64,000 nucleotides of DNA from Eledone cirrhosa (taxonomy: Eukaryota): assembly GCA_964016885.1 (NCBI GenBank), contig OZ024744.1, forward strand, positions 39,556,001-39,620,000, given 5' to 3'. Shown piece by piece: positions 1-34,444 of the stretch. Each line of letters opens with the position of its first letter. Positions within the stretch are counted from its first letter, which is position 1. The translations under genes were made by a program, and so were the position numbers. The notes beneath the pieces were generated by a model, which saw only the letters and a list, made by a program, of their open reading frames with translations, did no database searches and had not been told where the DNA came from.

Positions 1-608
1 CTTGCCTATGTTTACCAGATTACCAGGGAAAGGCAGACGTAAAATGATGATGAATGATGATGATAAAGACACAGTCATGGCTGCAGAGCTGAAAAGTTTC
101 TTTCACAACCACATGGTTTTGGGTTCTATCCTACTGTGTAAAAGCTAGAGCCCATGAAGCAGAGTGACTTTTATGACTGCGCCATGCATGCGCAATCCAC
201 ACACACAACATAGGAAAGATTCATTGAAAGAGGGTGCATCATTTTCGCTTTCATTTGAAAAGAAAGTTTTTAGCTTGAAATATTATGATGAAATATATTG
301 GGTAAAAAAACATTATTTAGTCCTGTTTTGTTTTATTTATGATCGTTTACCTCAATACCACCGTTATATATATATATATATATATATATATATATATAAA
401 TGTAAGTATGTATACGTACATACATATATGTATACAGACGTACAGTAGTATGTATATATATACATACATGCACACATATATATATGTACGTATGGGTTTA
501 CCGAACATTTATTATAATGTTTGGTTTGTTTGTAAACAAACAGCCCGAATTACGCCGTACAGTGTTCGGCAACCATCGTCGCCTTTTTGTTCAACACTGA
601 CACAGGAA

Positions 609-649
609 CGATGTACTAGTTTCAAGCTTATTAGCTATCGTCAGCAACG
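609..649 (-). ncRNA. Type I hammerhead ribozyme (left arm copy)
   Basis: Minus strand reads cgttg-CTGACGA-tagctaataagctt-GAAA-ctag-TA-catcg, with one mismatch in stem I. Confidence 0.75.
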
Positions 650-799
650 TATACCTTCCTGTCAGATGATTGAACATTTGAAAATATATACTTTCCTTAT
701 GCAAAGTATATACTTTCAGGAAAGTATATACCTTAGGAAAGTATATACCTCAGGAAAGTATATACTTTCAAATGTTCAACCATCTGACAGGAAGGTATA

Positions 800-840
800 C
801 GATGCTGACGATAGCTAATAAGCTTGAAACTAGTACATCG
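800..840 (+). ncRNA. Type I hammerhead ribozyme (right arm copy)
   Basis: cgatg-CTGACGA-tagctaataagctt-GAAA-ctag-TA-catcg. Perfect 5-bp stem I, palindromic stem III (ACTAGT), GUA cleavage triplet. Confidence 0.85.
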
Positions 841-1205
841 TTCCTGTGTCAGTGCTGAACAAAAAGGCGACGATTGTTGCCGAACACTGTACTGCGTAAT
901 TCGGGCTGTTTGTTTACAAACAAACCAAACATTATAATAAATGTTTGGTAAACCCATACGTACATATATATATGTATGCATGTATGTATATATATACATA
1001 CTACTGTACGTCTGTATACATATATGTATGTACGTATACATACTTACATTTAAGTATCAGCCGTACTAAGAGTGAGAAATGAAATTTCGTTTCATTCTTT
1101 TCCATTTATCATCATCATCATCATCACTGTTTAACGTCCATCTTCCATGCTAGCATGGGTTTATATATATATATATATATATATTTATATATATATATAT
1201 ATATT

Positions 1206-1608
1206 AAAAGCCGACCTTACCCAATTACACCTCTCAAAGGCGATGACACACGACCGTGACCTCTGGCGTCACGCAGTAATGCAGAATACCTTCCATGGGT
1301 ACAAGCTGAAGCATATAGACAATATGCCCCCACACCCTCCCACTTCAAGGTGTCCGTGGAGGTGCCATGGCAAAAAAGCACCCAGCCCACACTGTAAAGT
1401 GGACGTGTAGGCGCCACGGAAAAAGCACCCAGCACTCACTGTAAATGAGGTTGGTGTTAGGAAGGGCATCCAGCTGTAGAAATCAAGCCACAATCAGTTC
1501 CCGTATGAGCAAGGCATGGTCAGCCGACCAGACACTGCTCACAACAGGACAACCCGTCTAACCCATGCTGGCGTGGAAGAACGGACGTAAAACGGTGATG
1601 ATGATGAT
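1206..1608 (+). mobile_element. RTE LINE 3' end fragment
   Basis: Encodes KADLTQLHLSKAMTHDRDLWR (RTE C-terminus), followed by the shared 3' UTR and a (GAT)n tail. Confidence 0.85.
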
Positions 1609-1759
1609 ATCCTCTTTGGATTTTAGTCTTCAAATTTATTATTATTACTATATATATATAAAGGTGGTATTGAGGCAAGTCAAGATCAGATGAACAAGAC
1701 ATAGTCATCTGACCTTGACTTGCCTCAAATAGGACAACCTTTCTAACCCATGCTGTTCT

Positions 1760-30200: not shown

Positions 30201-30634
30201 AATATGGTTTTATAAATATAGTTTCCATTTATTAATACTGCATATATATATATATAATTTATATTATATATATAGATAGATAGATATATAATAGACATAC
30301 ACACACACATACACATGAATATATATATATATATATACGTGTGTGTGTGTGTCGAGGGGGGAGTGTATAAATATGTGTATGTTACAAGTGTCCTGTAAGC
30401 AATTCACTCACTCCATCCCATGCTATGACTCATAGAAACATGTTAAGTTTAGATTATGTGTCTCTGCTTTCATAATGTTTAGCTGTCTTTCAGAGAGAAG
30501 TGTCTTTTGTTTCAATTTCTTGTCTCGTTATCATTTAAGATAAGGTTCTTCATTTTTTTTATTATTCTTTTTTTTTTATTTTGAATATTTATCTAGGTGG
30601 CCCAAATGAATAATATATGCATACATTATACATA

Positions 30635-30820
30635 CATATATATATATATAAACATCATATATATATATACATATATATATACATATATATATATATATAT
30701 ATATATATATATATATATATATATATATATACATATATATATATATATATATACATATATATATATATATATATATATATATATATATATATATATATAT
30801 ATATATATATATATATATAT
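30635..30820. repeat. (TA)n microsatellite
   Basis: Directly visible. Confidence 0.95.
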
Positions 30821-31017
30821 CAGATAGGGTGTGGTAAAAACCAGTTAGACCATAACCCAGCAGAGTACTCAATACTTGGGGTAGTAGAGTGAGTAATATG
30901 AAAAGATTCAGGAGCTCAATGCCTGAGCTCCGCTGTCGGGGTTCTGAATCTTTTCATATATAATTATAAATGAAATAACAGGAGGCTGGACTGGTGTAAA
31001 TCCTTGAAAGGTTTATT

Positions 31018-31075
31018 ATACTATGATCATTTCAATGACCGGGTTCCATATGAATCCGGTGATATCATCAGGTAT
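31018..31075 (-). ncRNA. Type I hammerhead ribozyme (left arm)
   Basis: Reverse complement of 33893-33950. Confidence 0.8.
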
Positions 31076-33892
31076 TGGAATATAACAAAGGAATATGTAA
31101 AAAGCCATGGGTCCGAAAAACCATAGGTCCGGGAAACCAGAGACAGAAAGGGCGGCTGACCAACTAGCTTCACAGCCAGCCGCCCTCAAACTGTTGGCAA
31201 CCGAAAACTACCAGTGATATCTGGTAAGGGGGCGCAGGCCTATCATGTACAACCACCACTCCGTCAAAGAAGAAGGGGAAGAAAGAAAGGGAGAAGAAGT
31301 GTAGTGTAAGGGTCAAACTACATTCATGTCAGAAAATGCCACGAAAAAAATGCTACCCAAAGAATCTATAGTGGGTGTCTGTATGGTCTAATGTGTGCAC
31401 CGAAGATTGGAACGCTAAACTTATGTTGCGAGTTATAGGATGAAATAAATTAAATTAAAATTATTATATTGCAAAATGGTAAATTGAAAAATAGAGGTAG
31501 CGAGATTTATTTATTTAACGAACTTACGGAGAGTCTTATATGAACATTTTTTTTTATTTAACTCGATAAGATATTATGATGGGATATAGAGTAAAAATTT
31601 CGATTGGGAGTCCCAGCCAGCACACCCACCACCAAGAGTCAGCCAGTCTCGAGTGGTATCGTCCAACGAAAGAAATCGAAATTAATTTTTCCGAGTACTC
31701 TAGGAACGTAGCTAACTTTGGCCCCGGGATCGCTAGCGGGAACCCCACAATTTCGACAGGCCATCGTCTATACCACGAATACTATTAAATCACACATTAG
31801 GGGTTTATTTACGTGTGAATAGAGGCATGATACAGCCAATAGTTGTGCCCAAACCTGGAGTTTGTAGGTACAGGTATAATTAGGCGGCCAAAACAGGCGG
31901 CGCGGTGGGACTGGGGCAGAGCAAGCCACTCCAACTAATTTCATTTACCGAAAGAGGAGAAATTTATTTTTCCGAGCACTCAAGGAAGGGTGAACTTTCC
32001 GAGTGCCCAGCGCGCAGCCGGGAAAAAGCCACCACACAAGTAAAACAATGAAAAGTGCAAATAGATCAAAGTTATTTTTAATTATTTTAAAGTCCCAGTT
32101 AGTCCGGGTTATAGGTAGTGTGGTTCTTAGGTGGGTAGGGGGCTATGAAGGTGCATAATGACCTGAGTAAGGAAAAAGTTACAAAACAATACCAATACAT
32201 TGATAAAAAATACATTAGTAAAGTTTTGTCGAAATCGGAATCATCCCGACAAGGAAGTGGTATCAGGTGGCGGTAGATAAGGCGCAGAGCAGCCAAAATC
32301 CGAATGGCAAGTAGATCAGTTAATCCCATGCTGGTAATAGCTGTACACTGAAGGCAGTGCCGCTGTTCAATATTACATTTTGAAGTGCTCAACATTATAG
32401 GAGCATGATTCCGATTCCGACAAAACTCTACGTATTATACTAAAACTTGTATTGTATTGACTGTATTCTCTACTCTATACCTCAGGACTGTTTGCGACTC
32501 GCACTGAATTCGGAACCCGAACTTTACACTAGGTACAATCTGTTACCATTCCATCTCCTCCATCCTCTATATCTGTATCTATATGTACAACTTAGTACCA
32601 GTAATGTACTGGGTGTTTGCTGGCCTTGTGCCTAAAGTAGAAACAATTATCTTACTACAACTTGATCTATATTGACTCTCATTTACCTTTATTTTTTTTA
32701 CTATCTCATTAATGTATATTTTATTACTTTATTATTTTCTATTATTTTATTAATGTATTTTTATCAATGTATTGGTATTGTTTTGTAACTTTTTCCTTAC
32801 TCAGGTCATTATGCACCTTCATAGCCCCCTACCCACCTAAGAACCACACTACCTATAACCCGGACTAACTGGGACTTTAAAATAATTAAAAATAACTTTG
32901 ATCTATTTGCACTTTTCATTGTTTTACTTGTGTGGTGGCTTTTTCCCGGCTGCGCGCTGGGCACTCGGAAAGTTCACCCTTCCTTGAGTGCTCGGAAAAA
33001 TAAATTTCTCCTCTTTCGGTAAATGAAATTAGTTGGAGTGGCTTGCTCTGCCCCAGTCCCACCGCGCCGCCTGTTTTGGCCGCCTAATTATACCTGTACT
33101 TACAAACTCCAGGTTTGGGCACAACTATTGGCTGTATCATGCCTCTATTCACACGTAAATAAACCCCTAATGTGTGATTTAATAGTATTCGTGGTATAGA
33201 CGATGGCCTGTCGAAATTGTGGGGTTCCCGCTAGCGATCCCGGGGCCAAAGTTAGCTACGTTCCTAGAGTACTCGGAAAAATTAATTTCGATTTCTTTCG
33301 TTGGACGATACCACTCGAGACTGGCTGACTCTTGGTGGTGGGTGTGCTGGCTGGGACTCCCAATCGAAATTTTTACTCTATATCCCATCATAATATCTTA
33401 TCGAGTTAAATTTTAAAAAATGTTCATATAAGACTCTCTCCGTAAGTTCGTTAAATAAATAAATCTCGCTACCTCTATTTTTCAATTTACCATTTTGCAA
33501 TATAATAATTTTAATTTAATTTATTTCATCCTATAACTCGCAACATAAGTTTAGCGTTTCAATCTTCGGTTCACACATTATACCATACAGACACCCACTA
33601 TAGATTCTTTGGGTAGCATTTTTTTCGTGGCATTTTCTAACATGAATGTAGTTTGACCCTACACTACACTTCTTCTCCCTTTCTTTCTTCCCCTTCTTCT
33701 TTGACGGAGTGGTGGTTGTACATGATAGGCCTGCGCCCCCTTACCAGATATCACTGGTAGTTTTCGGTTGCCAACAGTTTGAGGGCGGCTGGCTGTGAAG
33801 CTAGTTGGTCAGCCGCCCTTTCTGTCTCTGGTTTCCCGGACCTATGGTTTTTCGAACCCATGGCTTTTTACATATTCCTTTGTTATATTCCA

Positions 33893-33950
33893 ATACCTGA
33901 TGATATCACCGGATTCATATGGAACCCGGTCATTGAAATGATCATAGTAT
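33893..33950 (+). ncRNA. Type I hammerhead ribozyme (right arm)
   Basis: atac-CTGATGA-tatcaccgg...ccggtcatt-GAAA-tgatca-TA-gtat, immediately followed by AATAAA. Stem III is the palindrome ATGATCAT. Confidence 0.8.
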
Positions 33951-34444
33951 AATAAACCTTTCAAGGATTTACACCAGTCCAGCCTCCTGTTATTTCATTT
34001 ATAATTAACTCCGTATTCGCACCACCAACTACACAAACGAAGATGGGTGAACTGCATTGCGTTGAGTACTCTTCCCAATATTACACCAGGATTGACCATA
34101 CGGAATGACCAGTTCTATCCAGTGGTGAACCAACAAACCTTAAGATATATATATATATATATATATATATATATATATATATATATATATATATATATAT
34201 ATATAGTAGAATAATCGAGTATCGAAAAATCGGCGCACGAGTTCACGATAAACAAAATTCGAAATGAGCGACAGAGGGCTCAATAATTCAGATAAATCAG
34301 AGCTATAACTATCGTTAAAATACCGTCACACATAGAACAAGTCTATAATCAACCGTACGACCGAAAAATTGCGATCTGGAAGATTCGGGACACTCAGAAA
34401 AAATATCAATAAATCAATAAATCAAATTATATATATATATATAC

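Follow-up and report, generated by a model that had tools for sequence, protein, structure and literature searches.

The window analysed here, a 64,000-nt stretch of the 3.0 Gb genome of Eledone cirrhosa (assembly GCA_964016885.1, contig OZ024744.1, positions 39556001-39620000), contains five families of hammerhead-ribozyme repeats, A to E, inserted in (TA)n microsatellites. Our reading is that family D is the pseudo-long terminal repeat (pLTR) of a coding Hydra-clade Penelope-like element (PLE), and that A, B, C and E are retrozymes which are likely to be copied in trans by PLE proteins (probability about 0.8), a route already suggested for repeats of this kind. The original prediction, made from the sequence of the window, had described five non-coding modules and interpreted them as non-autonomous ribozyme retroelements favouring (TA)n, without a coding partner in the window. 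The assignment to the PLE or retrozyme kind and the (TA)n targeting hold, and the non-coding description fits A, B, C and E; D, in contrast, is the terminus of an autonomous element. No PLE open reading frame (ORF) was found inside the window, as had been claimed, with either a profile built from 40 homologues or tblastn, and a single weak 42-aa match (window 16932-17057, E 6e-4) was not confirmed. A DNA search of the genome returned 2,333 (A), 4,489 (B), 1,523 (C), 487 (D), 1,434 (D', a subfamily related to D) and 1,599 (E) first-look candidates, which are not copy numbers; 40 were scored per search and 30 loci were fetched per family. The counts given below refer to best-match loci (the top 20-40 from hundreds or thousands of matches), fetched in most cases with flanks of 1.5 kb. 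Among the best 40 scored per family, the best full-length matches to the family queries are 89-100% identical.

Every family forms an inverted insertion between TA runs, in agreement with the predicted inverted copies near TA microsatellites. In each family there are two points, here called end 1 and end 2, at which 3' ends are joined to (TA)n; they lie 57 nt apart in A, 99 nt in B, 35 nt in C, 87 nt in D and 146 nt in E. The two classes comprise 23 and 18 TA-joined ends in A, 32 and 16 in B, 25 and 22 in C, 35 and 32 in D, and 19 and 18 in E, with only 8 of 262 such ends outside both; arms that terminate at end 2 carry the intervening stretch as a tail. With the two ends assigned by motif, end 1 is joined to end 2 in 51 of 57 inverted pairs, against 49% expected from the end frequencies (p ~2e-10). 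Pairs with one end of each kind account for 13/13 in B, 13/13 in C, 16/18 in D, 6/7 in E and 3/6 in A. Five of the six inverted insertions in the window were scored or read for this two-end pairing, and the sixth, D', conforms by eye. Target-site duplications are unreadable within (TA)n.

The arms of an insertion are about 27-3,585 nt long, with unequal ends. They were mapped for 48 pairs, three of the 51 heterotypic pairs having been dropped for poor coverage. The untailed arm extends further 5' than the tailed arm in 29 of the 48, and some tailed arms consist of the tail only. Arm divergence within an insertion compares with the between-locus median as 1.5 versus 4.1% in B, 3.0 versus 4.8% in C, 1.5 versus 9.8% in D and 2.1 versus 9.6% in E; the arms of these four families are therefore closer to each other than the loci are, which fits a single template. 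The inverted repeat is the known insertion footprint of PLEs and not a property of the hammerhead modules. It would not supply a dimer partner for the ribozyme, since any given transcript contains the second arm in antisense.

Family D is the pLTR of a Hydra-clade PLE whose 742-aa ORF lies elsewhere in the genome. Seven D loci were picked for long shared upstream sequence: four carry a same-sense upstream ORF of reverse transcriptase (RT) type, one its 3' part and two only the untranslated region (UTR). With the D-linked protein as a genome query, 84 matches were scored, and in many of them the frame is open for >700 aa; the 3' UTR follows the ORF in all 30 fetched protein loci, and a D segment lies at most 1.5 kb away in 21 of them. 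Locus L175, which is complete on its 5' side, reads as pLTR with hammerhead, 87-nt tail, 45 nt, ATG and 742 open codons, and a single ORF flanked by pLTRs with the tail is present in L175, L151 and L154. Inspection of the ORF by eye identified the motifs RWR, DKT, YRDD, YVG, CxCX5C (CNCRNKSNC) and CxxC/CxH, and no CCHH. There are 322 full-length homologues, which are unnamed, and the best named relative is from Argonauta hians (39%). No Pfam match was obtained for pieces of the protein and no NCBIfam match above the cut-off, so the assignment to the Hydra clade is based on motifs and anatomy. Insertion into (TA)n is documented by 67 TA-joined ends in the two classes, and TA follows 37 of 44 D-type tail ends, compared with a background of 1.5-2.4%.

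The cores at 19283 and 30136, which had been treated as one family, are related but represent two subfamilies, D' and D, respectively, that are ~80% alike. In some D' copies the shared upstream sequence extends to -144 or beyond, and no ORF was reached in the fetched loci. The 5' ends of D and D' copies cluster at a fixed start ~83 nt before the core, with an ACTATCC motif (L321-L410); 20 of 33 D' 5' ends fall at -71 to -90 in a set whose query began near there, with fewer in a tail-selected set. This clustering suggests that the start may be that of pLTR transcription and that the transcript would be read uncut. A 5'-end peak at -30 in family E was rejected as an artefact of a diverged subfamily.

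Families A, B, C and E are non-LTR retrozymes, consisting of non-coding tandem units with one type I hammerhead each. At many independent loci the unit begins again after the tail, with head-to-tail periods of ~428-430 nt in A, 657 nt in B, 320 nt in C and ~1.9 kb in E (loci L156, L158, L161 and L163); A, B and C fall within the 51-972 bp reported in a survey of vertebrates and E outside it. The C unit contains an internal TA run. The longest ATG-initiated frames are 102 (A, from a TA-rich stretch), 47 (B), 44 (C) and 70 aa (E), and nine PLE proteins gave no match to the four units. Among 120 PLE-ORF loci, none has A, B, C or E as its pLTR, their occurrences there being nested insertions. Sister families at 65-88% identity have no ORF link, and those of C and E wrap head to tail likewise. 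Tandem neighbours differ by 1.5% in B, as do sister arms, and by 3.4% in C, compared with 3.0% for sister arms. A search for linked ORFs or tandem copies had been proposed together with the original prediction, as had the possibility that all families are ordinary PLE termini: the ORF link and the terminus were found for D, and tandem copies, with no ORF and no PLE parent in the sampled loci, for A, B, C and E.

Several further elements were encountered in the fetched loci. The E unit (L161:3422-5290) and its sister (L414:5350-7420) both keep two copies of an internal ~60-nt repeat (E unit 695-758 and ~980-1040), which is possibly a structured RNA element. Frames resembling those of an LTR retrotransposon lie between two E insertions (L156:4316-7560). 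Two very young PLE families (L231-L290) have many near-identical open ORFs, of 775 aa and ~900 aa, and the 775-aa family carries a U3-A8 hammerhead ~1 kb after the ORF.

All nine predicted hammerhead cores are present in the window, with type I topology and a palindromic stem III. Their C3 positions are 644 (minus strand), 805 and 22130 (plus) in A, 9421 (plus) in B, 12232 (minus) in C, 19337 (minus) in D', 30144 (plus) in D, and 31071 (minus) and 33897 (plus) in E. A strict descriptor (type I core, stem I of at least 4 and stem II of at least 3) is passed by five of the nine (805, 22130, 9421, 12232 and 30144), compared with 0.035 on average, and never more than one, in 200 local dinucleotide shuffles. 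Core 644 fails owing to a U-U in stem I and core 19337 owing to the loss of 8 nt after the cut site; in both E cores a mismatch follows the first 2 bp of stem II, and only a relaxed descriptor is passed. An Rfam scan of the window reported only the 12232 motif (HH9, 27 bits, E 0.014, below gathering), and no hammerhead in the window or in six further loci reached the gathering score; microRNA matches from Rfam in the window were discarded as microsatellites. By these sequence criteria the motifs are type I ribozyme folds, with helices I-III in type I order around the core, and are predicted to self-cleave. Each of the five families has a perfectly palindromic stem III, a feature that the original prediction had linked to dimeric cleavage in known elements; that of C alone can also fold as a 4-bp hairpin, so C needs no dimer. 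The C core is the variant UUGAUAA (U3-A8). Only A and E carry the ribozyme on both arms, whereas B, C, D and D' have one arm that lacks it. The flanks (667 kb; L001-L170) contain well over 12 further hammerhead types, nearly all with a palindromic stem III, and the D-like types among them vary this stem (ATATATAT, ATGCGCAT, ATACGTAT).

Conservation across copies was examined in core and surrounding positions. Variants shared by at least four copies occur at 0 of 55 core sites and at 89 of 747 sites around the core (p 0.003), a difference that passes the conservation check proposed with the prediction and to which alignment seeding may contribute by favouring intact cores. The predicted fold is kept through compensatory changes in the sister families of A and C. 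Stem III of the A sister is changed from ACUAGU to ACAUGU and stem II from AGCU/AGCU to GGGU/ACCC, and stem I is also changed, with pairing kept throughout; in the C sister, U3-A8 is replaced by C3-G8 and the long stem I is rewritten in register. Between family E and its sister unit, identity is 65% over 1.7 kb but 91-92% over the ribozyme and the stretch that follows; this stretch also holds the priming region, so that both functions may contribute to its conservation. Insertions run through the predicted cut site rather than starting there: none of 96 mapped arm ends lies within 5 nt of it, 28 of 30 A copies run through the ribozyme although selected solely on sequence lying 3' of the cut (the other two begin 3-5 nt before the cut), and 4 of 79 A copies begin at the cut site.

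A mechanism can be proposed on the model of the in vitro work on an Anolis PLE. A PLE protein would nick both strands of a TA run, and reverse transcription would probably start from a pair of fixed sites within a single RNA, so that the two arms come to lie head to head. Since the template spans an uncut or religated site, ribozyme cutting would probably act earlier than insertion, freeing or circularizing units from read-through RNA. We give somewhat better than even odds to a single rule for the autonomous PLE and the four unrelated retrozymes, namely that a PLE dimer uses one RNA molecule to prime the two broken DNA ends, each at a different one of the fixed sites. One priming per fixed site would leave nearly every inverted insertion with one tailed and one untailed arm.

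The priming of a second DNA end on RNA could be dispensed with if the inverted arm arose by self-priming or fold-back of one cDNA, a model described in PMC3846280. Short junction palindromes and micro-duplications are present, and the untailed arm lies wholly inside the tailed one in 19 of 48 pairs, as such a process would allow. In the remaining 29, neither arm contains the other, so fold-back of one cDNA is insufficient there; several tailed arms are tail only, and the pairing rule requires the use of both start sites. We consider this origin quite unlikely. It is also unlikely that all five families derive from autonomous PLEs by 5' truncation, the coding masters having escaped sampling and the tandem units being local by-products. 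This description holds for D; PLE coding sequence is abundant (120,424, 38,920 and 24,301 first-look candidates), our checks covered three families and 30 mixed loci, and D' resembles a PLE end with no sampled ORF. The tail of A, B, C and E leads into the start of the same unit and not into an ORF, however, and does so at many independent loci, and the sister families of C and E behave in the same way.

A more tentative matter, with rather less than an even chance, is a refinement of the trans-copying reading in which units are copied in laps by the PLE RT from a small circular RNA formed by ribozyme cutting and religation. Arms span both the cut site and the unit junction, the similarity of tandem neighbours to sister arms in B and C is consistent with such laps, and retrozyme circles have been shown in coral, mussel and axolotl (PMC7229834). 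On the other hand, units within some A arrays are 6-12% apart, D leaves the same footprint from a linear mRNA, the fixed 5' start of D and D' copies is as expected for a linear transcript read uncut, and uncut RNA is the main template in vitro (PMC11167929). It is most improbable that the motifs are decayed look-alikes that do not function as ribozymes and owe their spread to (TA)n slippage or to DNA transposition in the manner of miniature inverted-repeat transposable elements. The Rfam scores below gathering and the weak monomer folds would be in keeping with decay, whereas the descriptor excess over shuffles, the compensatory changes and the link to an RT-type ORF are not; the arms are unequal and variable in length, with fixed 3' ends and variable 5' ends, and DNA transposons of this type were rejected on finding no fixed terminal inverted repeats of equal length.

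Several observations weigh against trans-copying of A, B, C and E by PLE proteins from one RNA. End 1 is joined to end 1 in 6 of the 57 pairs, three of them in A, and the A arms, 5.3% apart (9/171 differences) against 7.7% between loci, are not clearly more alike than loci are. The arrays of A also mix subfamilies. Monomer folding is better than that of shuffled sequences only in C (z -8.9; -0.3 to -1.7 in the other families), and eight of nine Xenopus retrozyme dimers failed to cleave in vitro (10.64898/2026.07.22.740005). A search with three protein queries and PF01541, sister-family queries and long stretches covered 120 PLE-ORF loci, the sister-family loci and nine long stretches and yielded no autonomous parent for A, B, C, E or D', and the trans partner of the four retrozymes is therefore a matter of inference; best-match sampling under-samples long insertions and rare master copies. 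The same search retrieved further PLE families that carry palindromic hammerheads of their own, and in some of these the core is U3-A8, as in C.

The insertions are arranged in the window as follows. The left arm of A (397-703, minus strand) has end 1 against (TA)n 365-398 and a predicted cut after 614, its core (644) being the one with the U-U in stem I; 17-bp repeats mark the head-to-head junction (695-765), and the right arm (743-1109, plus) has a predicted cut after 835 (GUA) and the 57-nt tail to end 2. A solo copy of an A subfamily (84-89%) at 22042-22373 (plus; core 22130) has a predicted cut after 22160 and terminates at end 1. In B, a short left arm without ribozyme (9216-9282, minus) terminates at end 1 and adjoins (TA)n 9186-9221, and the right arm (9278-9884, plus; unit 657 nt) has a predicted cut after 9488 (GUA) for core 9421 and the 99-nt tail. 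The left arm of C (12025-12281, minus; unit 320 nt) is tailed and has the U3-A8 core (12232) with a predicted cut after 12196 (GUC) and a long extended stem I; its right arm (12281-12526, plus) spans the unit junction, has the ribozyme core deleted and terminates with end 1 at (TA)n 12517-12558. D' comprises a left arm (19246-19411, minus) with end 1 and core 19337, its stem I damaged by the 8-nt loss, and a tailed right arm without ribozyme (19412-19555, plus) that ends at (TA)n 19555. In D, the left arm (29898-29971, minus) is only part of the 87-nt tail, and the right arm (29971-30241, plus) holds the 3' UTR end and the Hydra-clade pLTR, with core 30144, a predicted cut after 30192 (AUA) and end 1. 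The left arm of E (30961-32410, minus; core 31071) runs from the unit start to end 1 and has lost ~270 nt internally, with no clear GT-AG that would support a splice reading; the right arm (32405-34144, plus; non-coding unit of ~1.9 kb; core 33897) has a predicted cut after 33946 (AUA) and the 146-nt tail to (TA)n 34145-34204.

Other TA-bounded short repeats in the window (8646-9185, 12760-13070, 18908-19085, 19585-19740 and 30821-30960) recur in 7-38 fetched loci and are probably further ends of PLE type that share these TA tracts as nested insertions. A hairpin of ~310 nt with near-perfect arms (26331-26644) lies beside a CA/TA run and was not found in the fetched loci, and nested short fold-back repeats at 20770-20980 have no TA runs at their borders. 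The bulk of the window is microsatellites and decayed repeats, the latter resembling long interspersed nuclear elements (LINEs). Two long open frames (512 and 1,204 aa) at 44124-49685 form an apparently intact LINE-like element. Frameshifted ORFs at 23725-25567 are presumably transposase-like, and an open 945-aa ORF on the minus strand (58607-61444) is presumably LINE-like. No tRNA gene was found in the window.

The features described here are of known kinds, one Hydra-clade PLE end and four retrozyme-type families, and fit known PLE biology. The element classes, the tail on one arm and the preference for (TA)n were known already; the additions are the pairing rule across an autonomous and four non-coding elements, the covariation and the 1.9-kb unit. 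If the single rule is correct, it would show directly, from genomic data, that the retrozymes of animals use the PLE machinery, and would map both priming sites of each family to a few bases, and retrozymes would extend to a 1.9-kb non-coding unit that keeps its ribozyme and a 60-nt internal repeat across 35% divergence. How PLEs build tandem and inverted insertions and what mobilizes retrozymes are named as open questions in PMC8557442 and PMC7229834. The young open PLE ORFs, together with retrozyme families with mapped start sites, make both testable with defined RNA-protein pairs.

D resembles the endonuclease-positive (EN+) PLEs of the Hydra clade (Craig et al., 2021; PMC8557442) in its single ORF with a C-terminal endonuclease region, in the motifs RWR (RWK), DKT, CxCX5C and CxxC/CxH around E and N, and in the pLTR hammerhead, the (TA)n target, the inverted truncated copy and the tail on one end. 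It differs in a longer 3' UTR (~1.5 kb) and a tail of 87 rather than 30-40 nt. That only one of two inverted pLTRs bears the tail has been reported (PMC3846280; PMC8557442). Frangieh et al. (2024; PMC11167929) found for the Poseidon PLE of Anolis carolinensis in vitro that both strands of AT-rich DNA are cut and extended, that two internal RT start sites bound the tail and that uncut RNA serves as the template; the Anolis tail lies within the start of the ORF, whereas the tails here are non-coding, 35-146 nt long and defined by genomic evidence alone. B, D and E resemble the PLE hammerheads of Cervera and de la Pena (2014; PMC4209133), with a long helix II, a short helix I and a palindromic helix III through which two ribozymes are predicted to pair, whereas in A and C helix I is extended and contains an internal loop, and C has a 4-bp helix III and a U3-A8 core.

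A, B and C are like the non-LTR retrozymes of metazoans (Cervera and de la Pena, 2020; PMC7229834; Li, Clavereau and Pollet, 2026; 10.64898/2026.07.22.740005), with which they share non-coding tandem units of 320-660 nt and 34-35% GC, one type I hammerhead and an occurrence as monomers and short arrays. Retrozyme units are ~170-400 nt, and 51-972 bp in the vertebrate survey (10.64898/2026.07.22.740005), whose pipeline limited periods to 1,000; the 1.9-kb E unit exceeds these ranges. A PLE origin of retrozymes has been published, and a match to a known element was obtained for only 24 of the 57 Xenopus families (10.64898/2026.07.22.740005). For retrozymes, the available text of both papers does not describe insertions with two inverted arms, a pair of fixed 3' ends or a preference for (TA)n such as A, B, C and E show, and the words 'inverted' and 'microsatellite' do not occur in that of PMC7229834. 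Neither inverted two-ended retrozyme insertions nor retrozyme units of >1 kb were reported in the available text of the papers or apparent from the titles and abstract openings of those retrieved by the literature search; subscription papers, Repbase/Dfam and supplements, which lay outside the scope of that search, may hold the families described here. As a non-coding element with pLTR-type ends that is presumably mobilized in trans, E is comparable to MRC1 in Chlamydomonas (PMC8557442) and to the pLTR-flanked captures in Adineta (PMC3846280). Most Chlamys elements have no detected canonical hammerhead, whereas E retains one and persists as a family with a sister unit of 65% identity.

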